64,000 bases of DNA, from NCBI GenBank assembly GCA_013329045.1, contig DUKZ01000002.1, positions 30,662-94,661 of the forward strand, written 5' to 3'. Shown here piece by piece: positions 9,170 through 54,979 of this stretch; within the stretch, counting starts at the first letter, position 1; the number at the start of each line of letters is the position of its first letter. This DNA comes from Candidatus Woesearchaeota archaeon. Its GTDB lineage: Archaea; Nanobdellota; Nanobdellia; Woesearchaeales; UBA9989. The notes beneath the pieces are model-generated. The model was not told where the DNA came from and did no database searches. It saw nothing but the letters and a program-made list of their open reading frames with translations. A program made the position numbers and the translations under genes.

Positions 9170-10212
9170 CTGAGTGGCAGCCATCGGGAAGAGAACCCCC
9201 CTTTCTCTTGATTGGTACGAACAGGATAGAACTGACGCAAACAAGGACTGGTGTCAACGGATTTAGTGAATTAGGAGCCAGTCTCCCTGGTGGAGGGGTT
9301 ACTCTACCGGTGACAATCGATACATCAACAATGATAGACGTCAGGGTGAGAGGGTTTGTTTTCCATTCTGAAATAGGTCCTTATGCATTGTCCCGTCTCG
9401 GTACATCTGGTGCATTCGCCCATCAGGCGACATTCCAAATTGTTCCAGGGACAGATCTTTTTTTGAATCTTATTCCATGCGGAAAAATAAAGGGGGTGGT
9501 CTTTAACGCATCAAACAGAAAAACACCAGTTCCTTTGGGAAACGTTAAACTCAGAACCACCGAACGCCAAGGAGGAAGGAGGGGGGCAGTGGTATTTGAT
9601 GAGGTCATCACTAATGCTAAGGGTGAATATGAGCTTTATGTTGATCCATGGAAAAGTTACGATGTTTTGATTGATAGGACGACACACCCAGGAGATCTTC
9701 ATCCATTGTCGTCAGGAGGTATGATTGATCATAATGCATCGTTCTCATCAGAAAGCCACGTTGAGGACAATCAGCAAGCGATTCTTAATCGAGGTCCAAG
9801 AACAGCAGGGAGTGGTTGGTCAATCAAATCAGGTAACGAAGAAACCTTTAATATTTATCTCTTCCCTGCAAGTGTGCCGGTCATCACCCACCTCAATGCA
9901 GGATCAGGCGATGTGAACAATGGTTCACTTGTGGTTGAAGTCGACTCTGCCCTGGGAACAGTTGTAACGATTCAAGTGAAAGGCCACTCCTTCAAAAATC
10001 ATACTGGTTTTCAGGTAGTGAGTGGAATCAAAGTGGATTCAAGATGGTTCCCCTATACCAATGATTCTGACACTAATGGAACATTAACTATTGACTCGAC
10101 TGCTACTGAGGGTGAGTATTGGCTCATTTTAAGGAATCATATCGGGGAGGGTAGTAATCTGACGATAGCAGGAGCACCATATCATTTCACCATTAAAAAA
10201 AAAACACCATGA
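9166..10212 (+). CDS. Hypothetical beta-rich protein, possible carboxypeptidase-regulatory-like (CarbopepD_reg) domain
   Basis: TTG start overlapping upstream stop (cTTGA); segment GKIKGVVFNASNRKTPVPLGNVKL...AKGEYELYV resembles CarbopepD_reg beta-sandwich pattern. Confidence 0.4.
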   Translation: MTEWQPSGREPPFLLIGTNRIELTQTRTGVNGFSELGASLPGGGVTLPVTIDTSTMIDVRVRGFVFHSEIGPYALSRLGTSGAFAHQATFQIVPGTDLFLNLIPCGKIKGVVFNASNRKTPVPLGNVKLRTTERQGGRRGAVVFDEVITNAKGEYELYVDPWKSYDVLIDRTTHPGDLHPLSSGGMIDHNASFSSESHVEDNQQAILNRGPRTAGSGWSIKSGNEETFNIYLFPASVPVITHLNAGSGDVNNGSLVVEVDSALGTVVTIQVKGHSFKNHTGFQVVSGIKVDSRWFPYTNDSDTNGTLTIDSTATEGEYWLILRNHIGEGSNLTIAGAPYHFTIKKKTP

Positions 10213-11609
10213 TCCATGAATGTCCGATCCCAAAAATTAAAGATTTAGAATTCGTATATGATTCTGGAGAGTTTATTGGCCGTGCAGTAAGTAGAATTAA
10301 ACGAGGATCGATAAAATTAGATACGATTATTGAGCGGAATCGGGAACTCGAGGCTCTTCGGCAGATCATTAGTCAATATTTGCAAATCAACAATACCATC
10401 TTACCACCAGCAATACCAAGTGGTCGTTGGCCCTGGGAGCAAGCAGTAAGCGCAGTTAACACAAGGGCCCCTCCGGGATCTTATCTTGAAGAATTATGGA
10501 AAATGAATATTGGTCAATTATTGGATTATTTAGACCAGGTATCTAGAGAGATCCAAGCAGCATGGGAACCCATGACCAAAGAAACTAAACGGGCAATTGG
10601 GTTTGTAAGGACAGACAAGGATTGGCCATCAGGATATGGAAGAATGAGAAATCTTGCTTTTATTTCTAAGAATCATGGGCAAAAGTTGATCCAGATTCTA
10701 GCAAAGATACGGGGAACTAGTACTGGAAGCGAGAATACTGATTTTATATATGCTGCTTCAATCTGGCATCAATTATGGACATTATTTGCATTTGGGATAT
10801 GGCGTATAAATAAGATTAGGGAGGTATTCTGTGAAGAACTCGTCCATGGTGGAGCGCCTCCCCCCAAAATTCTTCAACCCAGCACCGTGGAGCTATCACC
10901 CTCAATCCCAACAATTCCTCTTTCCCCCGTAGATTCAGGTGATGATGAATGGACAACTATACTAAAGAGCGGTGGGAGGATACCAATAAGGGATGGGTTA
11001 CATGGCAGCAAATCAGATAGAAAATTCTATTTTCCTCAGGGAGCATGGATGAACTTCCCGGGAGAGCAGCCTGGCCTTGACACAGGTTGGAAGTTTCACA
11101 TCCTCACTGAATCTAGCGATGAACTCCTAGCACTTGGCCGTGTTCTCATACCTTTCTTTTGTTCTGAGGGATGGAACTTCAAAACAGCCGTGTCAATAGA
11201 TAAATTCAATGAATTTTTTGGTGATGAGGCAAACAAGCAGTTCGGCAAAGGGTTTGTTGTCTATATCGATGCCCCTAACCCTGCAGATATTGCAGAGGTG
11301 AAAACCATTGCTCACTCGATGAGGGAGAAGATAATCAAAAAGATTCAAGAAAGCGGTGTCGGCAAGCCAAAACATGAGGTAAAAGGAGACGCTCCTGTCC
11401 CAGGCGATCTGACTGGAAGGCTCTATCACAGATATGAGTTCACTTCGCCGGGGAGAGAGAAAAAGTATGAAGGGAACTACAGAAAAAATGATGGTAAACA
11501 TTATAATATCGAAGAAAATGAGGATATCTTTGAGGGTATTAATCATGAAAGATATCCATTAATTAGGGTATGGTTTTCACCTCCCAAGAACTGGATGGCA
11601 AGACCATAA
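10209..11609 (+). CDS. Hypothetical protein (466 aa)
   Basis: ATGA overlap with upstream stop; long ORF, no recognisable motif. Confidence 0.5.
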   Translation: MIHECPIPKIKDLEFVYDSGEFIGRAVSRIKRGSIKLDTIIERNRELEALRQIISQYLQINNTILPPAIPSGRWPWEQAVSAVNTRAPPGSYLEELWKMNIGQLLDYLDQVSREIQAAWEPMTKETKRAIGFVRTDKDWPSGYGRMRNLAFISKNHGQKLIQILAKIRGTSTGSENTDFIYAASIWHQLWTLFAFGIWRINKIREVFCEELVHGGAPPPKILQPSTVELSPSIPTIPLSPVDSGDDEWTTILKSGGRIPIRDGLHGSKSDRKFYFPQGAWMNFPGEQPGLDTGWKFHILTESSDELLALGRVLIPFFCSEGWNFKTAVSIDKFNEFFGDEANKQFGKGFVVYIDAPNPADIAEVKTIAHSMREKIIKKIQESGVGKPKHEVKGDAPVPGDLTGRLYHRYEFTSPGREKKYEGNYRKNDGKHYNIEENEDIFEGINHERYPLIRVWFSPPKNWMARP

Positions 11610-42775: not shown

Positions 42776-42864
42776 CGCGCCTGAAGGGATTCGAACCCTC
42801 GGCCTACTGCTCTCACCATACCATATAGGAGGCAGTCGCTCTATCCAAGCTGAGCTACAGGCGC
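42776..42864 (-). tRNA. tRNA-Arg (anticodon CCU) with 14-nt canonical-position intron
   Basis: Cloverleaf: acceptor GCGCCTG/CAGGCGC, D-arm GCTC-AGCTTGGATA-GAGC, anticodon stem ACTGC/GCAGT, loop CU-CCU-A|intron TATGGTATGGTGAG (42812-42825)|A, T-arm GAGGG-TTCGAAT-CCCTT, discriminator G; no encoded CCA. Confidence 0.8.
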
Positions 42865-49653: not shown

Positions 49654-50622
49654 ATGAGTGATATTACTGACCTTGACCAATATGATCGCCGCTTGCTCTA
49701 TGAGCTGGATAAAGACAGTTCCACCTCGCTTCCTGTCCTGGCAAAAACGCTCAAGCGCTCAAAACAGTTCATTCTCTACAGGATGAAAAGGCTCGAGCAA
49801 TCAGGCGTGATCACAGGTTATCATGCTATTATTGACATGGCAAAGCTTGGATATTTCACTTTTAGAGTCTATGTAAAATTCCAGCAAATGACAAAGGCAC
49901 AAGGAGAACTATTTGTGGCTCATGTCAGGAAGCACCTAGATCAGGTATGGACCATCACGAGTATGCATGGCAAGTGGGATTATGCCCTTTTTCTTGGTGT
50001 GAGAAGGATCAGTGAATTCCACACCATCTGGGACCAGATCATGCTCAGCTATAAGGAACATATCAAAAAGTATAATGTCGCTGTTTATGCACCAATTATC
50101 AACTTCAACAGGATGTTCTTTTATGATCGCCCCTACCAGCCGGTCGAACGGGTTTATGGTGATGGTGATATGGTGCCATTAAAGGAGCATGATTGGGAGA
50201 TCATCGAACTCTTTGCCAATAACGTCAGGCTCTCGAGCCTCGCAATCGCGCAGCAGCTGAAGATGAGTGCTGACACCGTGCGAAGAAGGATCAAGGAATT
50301 GGAAAAGACAAAGATCATTGTCGGTTATAAGATTGGCCTTGGCCTCGAGCAGCTCGGGTATGCAGGTTATAGGGTAGACTTAGAGCTTCTCTCGACAAAG
50401 CGCAACAAGGAGATTTTTGAGTATTGCAAGCAGCACAAGAACATCTACCAGATAAACAGGAGCATTGGTGGGGCTGACTTTGAAATTGAGGTCATCGTCA
50501 AGAACCTCCCGCATCTGCTCTCTTTAATAGATGAGATGAAACAGCAGTTCCCGGAGGTCATCAGGGACGTGGATTACTTTGGATTTTCAACATTCCATAT
50601 CTTGAAGTATATCCCTGATTGA
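49654..50622 (+). CDS. Tandem-duplicated Lrp/AsnC-family regulator (two HTH-RAM modules in one polypeptide)
   Basis: Two HTH_AsnC-like segments: LDQYDRRLLYELDKDSSTSLPVLAKTLKRSKQFILYRMKRLEQSGVITGY and HDWEIIELFANNVRLSSLAIAQQLKMSADTVRRRIKELEKTKIIVGY. Confidence 0.65.
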   Translation: MSDITDLDQYDRRLLYELDKDSSTSLPVLAKTLKRSKQFILYRMKRLEQSGVITGYHAIIDMAKLGYFTFRVYVKFQQMTKAQGELFVAHVRKHLDQVWTITSMHGKWDYALFLGVRRISEFHTIWDQIMLSYKEHIKKYNVAVYAPIINFNRMFFYDRPYQPVERVYGDGDMVPLKEHDWEIIELFANNVRLSSLAIAQQLKMSADTVRRRIKELEKTKIIVGYKIGLGLEQLGYAGYRVDLELLSTKRNKEIFEYCKQHKNIYQINRSIGGADFEIEVIVKNLPHLLSLIDEMKQQFPEVIRDVDYFGFSTFHILKYIPD

Positions 50623-51428: not shown

Positions 51429-51485
51429 AGAGGAATGTACGTCTACATTTTATTTAAATCTTTCTATGTGGACGTATAGAAAAAA

Positions 51486-51588
51486 GCCCCCGGCGAGAGT
51501 TGAACTCGCGACCTGCTGATTGCCTGCTAATGGCTACAAGTTTCAGCTCATAGAGAACAGCCGCTATAGCCACTAAGCCACGGGGGCA
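51486..51588 (-). tRNA. Intron-containing tRNA (about 30-nt intron), isotype not confidently assigned
   Basis: Acceptor GCCCCCG/CGGGGGC, D-loop with GG, T-arm GCGAG-TTCAACT-CTCGC, anticodon stem GCTG(T)/(T)CAGC separated by about 30 nt; U discriminator; followed by T6 tract; anticodon UCU possible only with atypical C33. Confidence 0.6.
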
Positions 51589-51756
51589 CTAATTGATGGT
51601 TATCAATATTTATTTAAAAAGCTTCCTCTTAATAAATTATACCGCTTTAGTTGCTTTGGATTATTGATCCCAGTCTCTTCAACCCCGACAGGTATGCCTG
51701 TTTCTTTAGCAAAACATTGGAGCGCTTGAATGAAAAAAACAGCTCCAGGGACAAGA

Positions 51757-52308
51757 TCAGAATTTCGGGAACTGTGTTGGTGTTGGAGGACCACTTACCG
51801 CTTCTGATTCATACCTGTACAGGTTTAAGAACCCTTTGATGTTCCCATATAATTGGTTCACATCCTCAAGCAATCGGGCCTTAAATCTTTCTGTGTAAGG
51901 CACAAAGATGAAGCGGTCAAACATTGTCCTGATGAAGAAGAATTCCGGTTTTGATTCCCACCTGTTCTCATAATCTGTTTCAAACCACGCATCAAAGATC
52001 ATGCTCACCTTTCCCTGGTTTACCGTCACTTTGAGCCCTTCCCGCTCTATATCCACTTTCTTGACATCTTCCATGACCATCCTGATCTTCACGACAAACT
52101 TTGCATAATCCGTGATCTTTTTCCAGGGCTCAAGGACAAGTTCAACATATTTTCCAGTAGGCGTTACCGTCTCATAATTCTTGTCTTCGCGCTTGTCATA
52201 TCCTTTTTCCCGAAACCATTCCTGAATCATTGCATAGAGCTCTTCGACATCAAAGAGCCCTTCATACATAAGGCGCATGTGGTCGACGACAAGTGTCCTT
52301 TCAGCCAT
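51757..52308 (-). CDS. Uncharacterised protein, paralog 3 of a tandem triplet (183 aa)
   Basis: Shares Y.M(I/M)(Q/H)EWF.E.G(Y/W) ... W.W ... Y......V ... DVK/E scaffold with the two upstream genes. Confidence 0.5.
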   Translation of the reverse strand: MAERTLVVDHMRLMYEGLFDVEELYAMIQEWFREKGYDKREDKNYETVTPTGKYVELVLEPWKKITDYAKFVVKIRMVMEDVKKVDIEREGLKVTVNQGKVSMIFDAWFETDYENRWESKPEFFFIRTMFDRFIFVPYTERFKARLLEDVNQLYGNIKGFLNLYRYESEAVSGPPTPTQFPKF

Positions 52309-52324
52309 GATCCCTCTTTTTTAC

Positions 52325-52846
52325 CTACCAGACCGCCCGGTAGGGGTCTGCTGTCGTTTCCATACCTAAAAACTTTTTGATTTCTGTGTGGAGCTTGAAG
52401 ACGATGTACCAGAGATGGTCTGTCCAGAAGATATCCATATCCCGGCGAAGGAGTGTTTTATAGAGGACATCATCCAGCACTTTTTGGAGGGGGGTTGTCA
52501 CACGGTTCTGGTATTCCATCTCCACCTGGGAGGATATCTCAAGGTTCATCTTTAATTTCAGCCGCTTTTCCTTCTTTCCATCACGTACAACTTCAATCTC
52601 TTTTACGTCCATGAGGTAGAAATAGACATGAATCCGGTAGAGCGCATATTCCGTCACCTTTTTCCACGCGTCCCATTCAATCTCCATGTGCTTTCCAAGC
52701 GGTGTTGGGATTTTATACTTCCAGCTTTGTTCTTCAAGATAATATGAGCGGTCAAGGAACCATTGGTGCATCATCCTGTAGAGGCCGTCAAAGTCCACTA
52801 TGCCGGCATACCTGATCCGTGACACGGGCAGCTTTTCTAATCTCAT
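52325..52846 (-). CDS. Uncharacterised protein, paralog 2 of a tandem triplet (173 aa)
   Basis: YRMMHQWFLDRSY motif; ATGA overlap with upstream paralog. Confidence 0.5.
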   Translation of the reverse strand: MRLEKLPVSRIRYAGIVDFDGLYRMMHQWFLDRSYYLEEQSWKYKIPTPLGKHMEIEWDAWKKVTEYALYRIHVYFYLMDVKEIEVVRDGKKEKRLKLKMNLEISSQVEMEYQNRVTTPLQKVLDDVLYKTLLRRDMDIFWTDHLWYIVFKLHTEIKKFLGMETTADPYRAVW

Positions 52847-53457
52847 GTTTTCACATCATAATCAGTGAAGTCTTTTCGTGGATACCACTTTGCCATCTCG
52901 GGTTCTGGCAGGTATAATTGGAGTTTCATGTATGTTTTAATGGCTTCCTGCAGCCGATATGCTTCTCGATAGAGCTGGATTCGCTGCGATTGAAGCTCTG
53001 CTTTCCACACCCTCTTCGTAAAGACATCATACATATCTTTGAGGATGATCTTCTTCTGCCAGGTGCCTTTAGGATCAACAAGGATATATGCTCTGACTTT
53101 TATTTCCGGCTCTCCATAATTTGCCTTAAATTTTTCCCCTTCATGGACAACTTCCACTTCAGTAAGAAGGACAACATGGCAGTCAAGGTCAAGATGCCAT
53201 TCATAAAAAGGATTTGGACCACTTTGTCCTGGCGCCCCTTTGGTAAGCCTCCACCAGAACCATATCTCATCACCCCGTTTTGCGTGCTCCCGGTGGAGAT
53301 AAAATTTTTCCCCGAAATCATAGTCTACTCTCGTCGCCCACCCTTCCTCGATAAACCATTCATGCATCATGAAATAGAGGTTTCTCATGTGAAAATAATC
53401 AAGGTGTTTGACACGATACCTTGCAGCTTCAATCGTGTGGGGAATATAGGGAACCAT
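52843..53457 (-). CDS. Uncharacterised protein, paralog 1 of a tandem triplet (204 aa)
   Basis: YFMMHEWFIEEGW motif; first of three same-strand paralogs downstream of a TrmB-like regulator. Confidence 0.5.
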   Translation of the reverse strand: MVPYIPHTIEAARYRVKHLDYFHMRNLYFMMHEWFIEEGWATRVDYDFGEKFYLHREHAKRGDEIWFWWRLTKGAPGQSGPNPFYEWHLDLDCHVVLLTEVEVVHEGEKFKANYGEPEIKVRAYILVDPKGTWQKKIILKDMYDVFTKRVWKAELQSQRIQLYREAYRLQEAIKTYMKLQLYLPEPEMAKWYPRKDFTDYDVKT

Positions 53458-53532
53458 ACATTCTCTATGAGGAAGAGGCTATTTAAAGGTTTCTGTCAAT
53501 CGGGAGGATAAAATAAAAGAGAAAAAGCGTTT

Positions 53533-54264
53533 CTAAGGGGTATAGTAATCGTCCATATTTCCCCATATCTGGTTAAAGAAAGCCCGTTGCTTTTGCACAA
53601 TTAATGAAGAGGTAATAAGTATTCCTGACGGTTCTGGTTCCCATGAAATAATGCCCATTTTGTCATTACAGATACCGGTATTTTCGGGAATGGGAAACTT
53701 CACATATTTCATCCGCAAATACCGCCGTTGTGCAAACAGCGGTCTGAGCTTGACTGGTGCAATGCCTTTGACAATCAGTTTCTTTTCTTTCCTTTTCGCA
53801 TCATAGCGGGTATAAAACTTCTGGATAAGCTCATTATGGAGGTCAACATCAGCAGAGAAGAAGAGGAACTCATTTTTTGGTTTGGTTTCTTCTATAAGTT
53901 GGTAAAGCAGGGTGGAGACTCCTTTTATACCGCTGAATATTTCTGCATGTTGTTTTTCTGCGCCCAAGGTTTGCAGTTGATGAAGGTGGGGCAAAAGACG
54001 TGAAATCTCATTCTTCTTTTCATCCACATAATCAAGGATGGTCTCAGGGGGTGCTGCCTGATAGACCCGAGCTTTTCCCTTTATGATGAACGCGACAAAT
54101 CCTTTTTGGATGAGTGAATGAAGATTTGCATGAAGAACTGAGTTATGAACATGTGCCTTGTCAATAATCGCCCCCGCTGAGCCCGACCCCAATCGCAGGA
54201 GGGCTAAATAGACCTTTATCTCATTCTTCGTCAGCCCAATCTGTTCTAATGCCGAAGCATCCAT
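53533..54264 (-). CDS. TrmB-family transcriptional regulator
   Basis: N-terminal HTH LGLTKNEIKVYLALLRLGSGSAGAIIDKAHV typical of TrmB; C-terminal effector-domain-sized extension. Confidence 0.65.
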   Translation of the reverse strand: MDASALEQIGLTKNEIKVYLALLRLGSGSAGAIIDKAHVHNSVLHANLHSLIQKGFVAFIIKGKARVYQAAPPETILDYVDEKKNEISRLLPHLHQLQTLGAEKQHAEIFSGIKGVSTLLYQLIEETKPKNEFLFFSADVDLHNELIQKFYTRYDAKRKEKKLIVKGIAPVKLRPLFAQRRYLRMKYVKFPIPENTGICNDKMGIISWEPEPSGILITSSLIVQKQRAFFNQIWGNMDDYYTP

Positions 54265-54376: not shown

Positions 54377-54979
54377 ATGAGAACGAAAACGATAGACCAG
54401 ATTGCAAGGTTATTTCCATTAGCAAAATTTGCAGGTGATAACTCGTCAGAGAATGTAACACCAATAATGCTGAGGGAGAGGCTGTGGACCCGTGAAGAGG
54501 GCATGAGGAGTGTAGGAGAAGTTGGCATTCCGGTTGTGACAAACATACATTCGTTTACCAGCTATCACCCACGGTATGTGTCTTCGAGGACAGTTGCGTT
54601 GACCGTGTTTGATGAAAAGTTCTTTCGGGGGCAAGATCCTGGAAAATTATATTGGGGAAATTCAGAGAGTTCAGAATCATTGATCGATGAAGACTATTCG
54701 ATGATCAACAGAGATTGGGCAGATTTTTTAAGGTCATTTAATGATTATGGGGTCAGGGTGATAGATTCAGACGATAGTGACATGGGAAAAGGTCTGGAAG
54801 GATTAAACATTGATGAAACCGTGTTATACCAAACAATTCACTATGCATTCTCTGTTGAACGCTGCCTCCAACAGCACCTCACAGGGTTTTTCAGGCTCTA
54901 TGATGCTGTGCTGGACCGAGAGGATAGATCACATCCTTCAGTCCAGTTGATAAGAAGCTGTTATCAGGATTTGAGCTAA
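54377..54979 (+). CDS. Hypothetical acidic protein (200 aa)
   Basis: GGTGAGA SD; no motif recognised. Confidence 0.4.
   Translation: MRTKTIDQIARLFPLAKFAGDNSSENVTPIMLRERLWTREEGMRSVGEVGIPVVTNIHSFTSYHPRYVSSRTVALTVFDEKFFRGQDPGKLYWGNSESSESLIDEDYSMINRDWADFLRSFNDYGVRVIDSDDSDMGKGLEGLNIDETVLYQTIHYAFSVERCLQQHLTGFFRLYDAVLDREDRSHPSVQLIRSCYQDLS

Follow-up and report, generated by a model that had tools for sequence, protein, structure and literature searches.

The Woesearchaeota and Pacearchaeota, which are among the most diverse archaea and also among the least understood, have small genomes of which a large part is unannotated (PMC11606122, PMC9258230). Here, we describe three consecutive genes, named A, B and C, in a stretch of 64,000 nucleotides (nt) from a Candidatus Woesearchaeota archaeon (assembly GCA_013329045.1, contig DUKZ01000002.1, positions 30,662 to 94,661 of the forward strand). 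This whole stretch is called the window throughout, and positions are counted from its first letter. The window DNA is identical to contig JAGVYQ010000002.1 of the Candidatus Woesearchaeota assembly GCA_018303165.1. The three genes belong to a row of open reading frames (ORFs) on the minus strand, in which an ORF of 243 amino acids (aa) for a TrmB-like protein is followed by A, B and C and then by two overlapping ORFs of a toxin-antitoxin pair. The genes and the signals read around them are as follows:

53457 to 52843, minus strand: gene A, ORF of 204 aa
52846 to 52325, minus strand: gene B, ORF of 173 aa
52308 to 51757, minus strand: gene C, ORF of 183 aa
53480 to 53487, minus strand: TATA-box-like TTTAAATA, read from the sequence, starting 30 nt 5' of the ATG of gene A
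52312 to 52316, minus strand: GAGGG, putatively Shine-Dalgarno-like, in the B-C spacer just before the ATG of gene C
51733 to 51739, minus strand: run of seven T, about 18 nt past the stop codon of gene C, a candidate terminator

The lengths of the three ORFs, the 4-nt overlap (ATGA) between the stop of A and the start of B, and the 16-nt spacer between B and C are those given in a preliminary description of the locus, which was made from the sequence alone, and the motifs quoted there are present in the proteins. In that description the products were proposed to form a heteromeric complex of a new family, encoded next to a sugar-responsive regulator in an accessory hotspot. Its observation is confirmed, and its interpretation is supported in part. 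The TTTAAATA element before A probably acts as a promoter that is independent of the TrmB-like gene, and it is also found at about the same distance 5' of the nearby tRNA gene and of the toxin-antitoxin pair. Its position 30 nt from the ATG of A implies a leaderless or very short-leader transcript. The seven-T run after C is likely the archaeal oligo-T terminator of an A-B-C transcript.

Paralogy, distribution and conservation of the A/B/C family

A, B and C are true homologous paralogs, and their similarity goes far beyond chance. BLASTP comparisons among the window proteins gave E-values of 4e-19 (B-C), 3e-5 (A-C) and 1e-3 (A-B). When orthologues from four further genomes were included, all comparisons across families were significant (best 1e-17), and the within-family values ranged from 1e-28 to 1e-117. 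Alignment by hhalign of the C-family profile (56 sequences) with the A-family profile (23 sequences) gave a probability of 99.6% and an E-value of 1e-24 over 169 columns. The earlier statement that the three genes are paralogous is borne out by these values, and the aromatic-rich character ascribed to the proteins was also found, since phenylalanine, tryptophan and tyrosine together account for 15-17% of A, B and C versus 8.9% in 551 neighbouring ORFs.

No match to A, B or C was detected in Pfam, NCBIfam, PHROGs or PADLOC, in agreement with the preliminary view that no known domain signature is visible; in PADLOC and PHROGs nothing scored better than E 0.02. The 56 C-family and 23 A-family members were also scanned singly, and no family-library match was obtained; the Pfam matches to BapA_N (8 of 56) and B277 (5 of 56) in the C family were under the curated thresholds and were taken as noise. 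When the family profiles were searched against PDB sequences, no SRPBCC member was matched, and the sole match was a 39-residue stretch of VapW. Taken together, profile and Foldseek searches revealed no assignment to a well-characterised family. In the literature searched, no account of the A/B/C family was found, and the public databases carry only "hypothetical protein" entries. The A/B/C family is a new sequence family that has a variant of a common alpha+beta sandwich, and it is not a member of any characterised family. Lineage-specific hypothetical families of archaea, likewise of unpredicted function and both conserved in and confined largely to one archaeal lineage, have been reported (Meheust et al., 2022; PMC9258230). 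The A/B/C family could not be mapped to any of the families described there, and its tandem organisation, fold and distribution do not derive from that work.

The extent of the superfamily was assessed with a superfamily profile (A3) that was scored against 1.84 billion representatives. It comprises 2122 clusters (at 50% identity) at E ≤ 1e-3, of which 1633 are retained at E ≤ 1e-10. The 150 members listed are all single-domain, stand-alone proteins, and all but four of them are 160-225 aa long. The members that carry a name are "hypothetical proteins" from Woesearchaeota, together with one from Pacearchaeota and one labelled Patescibacteria. Gene C has at least 272 close homologues, all of them unannotated, and those with a named source come from Woesearchaeota. 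Exact words shared with database proteins are far fewer for A and B than for C, because A and B evolve faster. In a scan with one genome per GTDB species, a relative of C was encoded in 189 genomes. The titles among the 80 loci listed refer mostly to Woesearchaeota, Nanoarchaeota or Nanoarchaeia, with one Aminicenantes; many others are labelled 'uncultured Methanosarcinales archaeon', which is taken to be a generic or wrong bin label. The family was absent from 50,697 phage records searched by tblastn, and a scan of the IMG/VR viral contigs with the family alignment (A2) yielded no relative. The check on phyletic distribution suggested in the preliminary description therefore places the superfamily almost wholly in Woesearchaeota and Pacearchaeota, where it occurs as tandem pairs or trios.

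To describe the gene arrangements, hidden Markov models for A, B and C were used to class all ORFs in 84 non-redundant loci, with the following result:

A-B-C: 35 loci
B-C: 40 loci
B-C-C: 4 loci
C-C-B: 3 loci
A-B, cut at the contig end: 1 locus
C only, one of them cut: 2 loci

At least two family genes were present in 82 of the 84 loci, and one of the two single-gene loci ends at a contig edge. In nearly every locus, B immediately precedes C. The gap between B and C has a median of 1.5 nt and is at most 20 nt in 59 of 78 cases, and the median gap between A and B is 14 nt. In the leaf order obtained by neighbour-joining, the proteins fall into three contiguous blocks, A coming from trio loci only and B and C from all loci. 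A tandem pair of 166 and 169 aa was also found on a Pacearchaeota-like contig, beside the genes for fibrillarin and Nop5. Since the pair is near-universal, A is limited to the trio loci, and the pair is also present on the Pacearchaeota-like contig, the ancestral unit is a B-like plus C-like pair, and the lineage of the window belongs to a subclade that added A. An additional C-like gene is present in some lineages that lack A (B-C-C or C-C-B; loci L061, L065, L072 and L080, and L075, L085 and L087); in L061 it lies at 10040-10549, about 3.5 kb away. A third subunit may thus have arisen more than once, from different paralogs.

Conservation was analysed in a joint alignment of 209 family proteins, and residues are given here in C numbering. 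The positions conserved across the paralogs are E41, D112, K158, K93, G17, G52, Y25 and W31. Conserved lysines occupy alternating polar strand positions, which are taken as the exposed face of a sheet. Polar residues that are invariant in C only include E3, D9, Y15, E46, K53, K63/K64, D67, Y68 and D106, as well as T111, Y113, E114, W117, E118, K120, R127, D131 and N162. Most of the invariant polar residues are thus found in C, the motif TDYExRWExKP among them, and the terminal helix of C ends in IKxFLNLYR[YF]. The C-terminal tails differ among the subunits: that of C commonly ends in LNLYR[YF], that of B reads ...D[VIM]W, the final residue being tryptophan in 40 and aromatic in 57 of the 82 B proteins, and that of A carries LPEPE...[FW][WY]P. 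An HbYX proteasome-docking motif was considered for the C ending LNLYR[YF] and rejected, as the tyrosine is not penultimate. In C, the C-terminal helix is hydrophobic on nearly every side along its first half, PEFFFIRTMFDRFIFVPY, which suggests that this half would be enclosed by the sheet or buried in contact with another subunit.

The three subunits evolve at very different rates. Mean divergence is 0.53 for C, 0.44 for the GTPase YchF and about 1.05 for A and B, so that C is constrained about as strongly as this universal GTPase and A and B evolve about twice as fast. A is the fastest-evolving paralog, and it has an N-terminal extension and a loop insertion. The distance matrices of A, B and C are correlated with r = 0.85-0.86; given YchF, the partial r is 0.63-0.73, versus 0.36-0.46 for the adenylate kinase controls. 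The median isoelectric point (pI) is 8.9 in the B family and 8.5 in the C family, and both families are therefore mildly basic.

Predicted fold and structural comparisons

AlphaFold2 monomer models were built with the family alignments for C and A, and the mean predicted local distance difference test (pLDDT) and predicted template modelling (pTM) scores were 85.3 and 0.75 for C and 85.4 and 0.78 for A. Both models have the same order of elements, namely a strand, a 15-residue helix, five antiparallel strands and a C-terminal helix of about 40 residues, and A, B and C share one predicted fold. The five-strand sheet is long and twisted, with two strands of about 20 residues, and the C-terminal helix is rich in aromatic residues. 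The conserved C-terminal tails were modelled with low confidence and appear disordered in the monomers.

Foldseek comparison with the PDB gave START and PYL proteins as the best matches, which were not significant (E at least 4e-3, template modelling score (TM) at most 0.33). The longest structural alignments were with helix-grip proteins, including the StART-like domains of Lam2/Aster, Ups1, Bet v1, polyketide cyclases, CoxG and AHSA1. Other matches were the C-domain of phosphoglucomutase, TT1751 and 'TBP-like' proteins; these structural matches presumably all belong to the SCOP 'TBP-like' fold class. No Pfam family of the SRPBCC clan was matched at E ≤ 1 by A, B, C, the 56 C homologues or the 23 A homologues, so the family is set apart from the SRPBCC/START/Bet v1 proteins (including Ups1/PRELI and Lam/Aster) by the lack of sequence-profile similarity as well as by the non-significant Foldseek scores. 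A fixed tandem organisation of hetero-paralogs, as in A/B/C, is not typical of SRPBCC proteins.

KA1-like structures were also among the matches, including the U6-binding domains of METTL16 and TUT1. The KA1 and KA1-like domains (MARK, BRSK, Chk1, the C-terminal domain of AMPK alpha, the METTL16 VCR, TUT1) are appendages of about 100 residues on eukaryotic kinases and RNA enzymes, whereas the A/B/C proteins are free-standing, 165-220 aa long, and have strands twice as long and a 40-residue C-terminal helix. The A/B/C proteins share 7-13% sequence identity with these domains, match none of them by profile and differ from them in taxonomic range. Among the 150 family members listed, none was a KA1-style C-terminal appendage of a kinase or an RNA-modifying enzyme. 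The C-family profile matched VapW (9kan_B) with E 0.0046 over 39 residues. A match to NCBIfam VapD had E 0.064. The VapW match weakened to E 0.16 with the superfamily profile and was absent with the A-family profile. Relationship to VapD, VapW or Cas2-like proteins was rejected, because the similarity concerns a short N-terminal strand-helix motif that fades with broader profiles, and the topology is not the ferredoxin-like beta-alpha-beta-beta-alpha-beta (PMC11980593).

A proposed heteromeric complex and competing explanations

Based on the sequence evidence, the most economical reading is that A, B and C would form a heteromeric complex. They could be subunits of a soluble, constitutively expressed hetero-oligomer of an undescribed family restricted to Woesearchaeota and Pacearchaeota (GTDB Nanoarchaeota), a proposal that we consider equally likely to prove right or wrong. 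It is put forward because the orthologous groups keep a fixed order, the genes are tightly spaced or overlap, each subunit has residues of its own, and the divergence of the subunits is correlated. The three proteins would be made from a single transcript and could assemble through the C-terminal helix, which is largely hydrophobic, through the aromatic tails conserved at the C-terminus and through the edges of the sheets. C would hold the functional site, built from the superfamily-invariant E41, D112 and K158 together with the C-specific residues E46, K63/K64, Y68 and T111-D112-Y113-E114-x-x-W117-E118-x-K120, and A and B, as the faster-evolving partners, would serve as scaffold or adaptor subunits.

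What such a complex might do is a matter of more tentative proposals. The B-C pair, with A in one clade, could possibly be a near-universal heteromeric machine of Woese- and Pacearchaeota with an essential lineage-specific task, for example in the processing of RNA or ribonucleoprotein or in the handling of host-derived hydrophobic molecules; if this were true, its task would help to explain the biology of these ultra-small, host-dependent archaea. As a guess, and a rather doubtful one, the complex may bind an RNA or ribonucleoprotein that belongs to the translation or RNA-modification apparatus. This role is slightly preferred in view of the housekeeping neighbours, the mildly basic B and C families, the strand lysines and the precedent of KA1-like domains that bind U6 small nuclear RNA. 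Several observations weigh against the proposed complex and its role. No natural fusion protein was found in the best 150 superfamily matches. No neighbour is constant across clades, and guilt by association is therefore weak. Correlated divergence can also stem from shared lineage effects, C of the window is acidic (pI 5.3), and the longer structural alignments point to helix-grip proteins that bind small molecules or lipids more than to RNA binders.

The main competing view is that the three are helix-grip (SRPBCC/START/Bet v1-like) proteins that bind a hydrophobic small molecule or act on it as enzymes, e.g. a host-derived isoprenoid lipid or a cofactor. The ligand would lie between the curved sheet and the aromatic C-terminal helix, and the paralogs would either be heteromeric or each bind a ligand of their own. 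The beta-alpha-beta5/6-long alpha order of elements fits this fold, START and PYL are the best Foldseek matches even if not significant, the aromatic content is high (15-17%), and Woesearchaeota are generally without lipid synthesis (PMC11606122). In strand 1 of C, the conserved polar residues D9 and Y15 fall on an alternating set of positions that is hydrophobic elsewhere, an arrangement that would be compatible with a polar pocket like that of Bet v1-fold enzymes. We nevertheless regard this view as unlikely. No sequence-profile match to any SRPBCC family was obtained, and the Foldseek values stay at E ≥ 4e-3 and TM ≤ 0.33. A, B and C have neither a signal peptide nor a membrane anchor, and a cytosolic lipid shuttle would have no obvious task in a single-membrane cell. 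Moreover, SRPBCC proteins are usually monomers or homodimers and not hetero-trios of fixed order, and a lipid carrier would not usually have as many invariant charged residues as C. The genes could also be independent, redundant tandem duplicates that are adjacent only through duplication and have no obligate interaction. Duplication is their obvious origin, and the copy number varies (BC, ABC, BCC, CCB), but A, B and C are old, distinct orthologous groups whose order is unchanged in most of the lineages possessing them, each with particular positions of at least 90% conservation and with very different evolutionary rates, and the overlapping or near-zero spacing as well as the presence of two or more family genes in 82 of 84 loci make mere adjacency improbable, more so than the helix-grip view. 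The least credible explanation, now largely refuted and very improbable, is that the trio is an accessory operon which responds to sugar under TrmB control, lies in a mobile or defence hotspot and is perhaps linked to toxin-antitoxin proteins by the weak similarity to VapW and VapD. In its favour are the TrmB winged helix-turn-helix (wHTH) gene directly upstream on the same strand, the MNT/HepT pair and tRNA downstream, and the VapW (9kan_B; E 0.0046, 39 residues) and VapD (E 0.064) matches. Against it, the TrmB adjacency is seen in this genome only among the 84 loci and the promoters are separate, the regulator has no sugar-binding domain match, the trio lies in conserved housekeeping synteny with a C relative in 189 species genomes, the VapW match fades with broader profiles, and no PADLOC, phage or viral-contig match was found.

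With these alternatives weighed, three "hypothetical proteins" become a defined superfamily of about 2100 clusters, with an ancestral pair, a clade-specific third subunit, a confident fold model and invariant residues, and the prediction is gained of an obligate heteromer whose C subunit would be under housekeeping-level constraint. Once confirmed, the heteromeric complex would be well suited to structural and biochemical studies of a lineage-defining function; should it not be confirmed, the family still serves as a useful clade marker. On present evidence, the A/B/C family is a solid, moderately interesting lead for DPANN biology and not a surprising new system.

Genomic neighbourhood, the tRNA-Thr gene and the TrmB-like gene

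The other features that surround the trio in the window are:

54264 to 53533, minus strand: TrmB-like wHTH gene, ORF of 243 aa (PF01978)
51485 to 51587, minus strand: tRNA-Thr(UGU) gene (Rfam RF00005, 48.1 bits)
51428 to 50979 and 50982 to 50650, minus strand: toxin-antitoxin pair of two overlapping ORFs, MNT nucleotidyltransferase and HepT RNase by Pfam

The toxin-antitoxin module and tRNA that had been noticed near the trio were thereby identified by Pfam and by Rfam (48 bits), respectively. Across the 84 loci, the recurrent neighbours of the family are a divergent YchF-type GTPase (27 loci), adenylate kinase (17), TruD (17), a CBS protein (12) and histidyl-tRNA synthetase (HisRS; 11). A 623-aa protein with a nucleotidyltransferase domain recurs in 20 loci, and OapB/OapC with their GTPase were also found; fibrillarin and Nop5 are the neighbours in L091. 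The conserved synteny of the trio consists of YchF upstream and tRNA-Thr, adenylate kinase and TruD downstream. The protein of about 620 aa (L082, 822-2693, and 19 other loci) often stands upstream of the two-gene B-C form, frequently together with the CBS-domain protein, and its sole recognisable domain is a Pol-beta-type nucleotidyltransferase.

The DNA past tRNA-Thr varies between genomes. In the window, adenylate kinase and TruD are reached only after MNT/HepT, an Lrp/AsnC regulator and an ABC-2 transporter, and in the same place of L008 (8719-14608) the two genes are preceded by an rve integrase, a phage-integrase fragment, Mrr and PIN. This variable DNA looks like a tRNA-linked insertion hotspot. 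The accessory hotspot that had been proposed is real, but it begins after tRNA-Thr, and the trio stands on the conserved side; the notion applies to the DNA past the tRNA and not to the trio, which, with its C relative in 189 species genomes and its recurring housekeeping synteny, is a core gene set and not an accessory island. The tRNA-Thr gene separates the core trio from the variable DNA inserted beyond it. Within the inserted segment, a 322-aa protein (49654-50622, plus strand) has two Lrp/AsnC-type helix-turn-helix modules and matches to the AsnC ligand-binding domain, and is a tandem-duplicated Lrp-like regulator.

The tRNA at 51485-51587 (minus strand) was missed by ARAGORN in default mode, and the 'Pyl(CUA)' call made in its intron mode was dropped in favour of tRNA-Thr(UGU) after alignment with orthologous tRNAs. 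Such orthologous tRNAs stand directly after C in four of the 11 other loci checked (L006, L024, L025 and L051), with no intron in L025 and one intron in L006, L024 and L051. The gene in the window probably holds two introns, one of about 16 nt in the 5' half of the anticodon stem and one of about 14 nt at position 37/38; removal of these 16-nt and 14-nt inserts gave a perfect cloverleaf, which ARAGORN calls Thr(UGU). The tRNA of L008 seems to have the same two-intron layout.

The upstream gene had been described as a TrmB-like, sugar-responsive regulator, and only the first half of that description stands. Its product matches PF01978 at residues 6-74 only (E 1.5e-11; 44.4 bits, above the cut-off of 25.6), which makes it a TrmB-type wHTH protein. 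The NCBIfam TrmBL1 and TrmB models match the N-terminal part only, far under their equivalog cut-offs. A sugar-binding C-terminal domain was not detected, as no Pfam match past residue 74 at E ≤ 1 was found apart from noise, and the protein has 243 aa versus 338-341 positions in the TrmB and TrmBL1 models. In size it is nearer to TrmBL2 (264-position model; E 0.1, far below the cut-off) than to the sugar-sensing TrmB and TrmBL1. The tie that had been drawn between this gene and the trio holds for adjacency on the same strand, and a functional link is not supported: a T-rich stretch follows the stop codon of the TrmB-like gene, the gene has its own A/T-rich TTTTTATT box about 30 nt upstream, separate from that of A, and among the other loci a TrmB homologue occurs in only one, about 3 kb from the trio and not adjacent. 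The TrmB-like gene forms a transcription unit of its own and is not conserved as a partner of the trio. A 200-aa ORF (54377-54979, plus strand) is divergent from the TrmB-like gene and has neither a family-library match nor a homologue in the other 84 loci. Elsewhere in the window, a tRNA-Arg(CCU) gene of 89-90 nt (42776-42864, minus strand) is probably intron-containing too.

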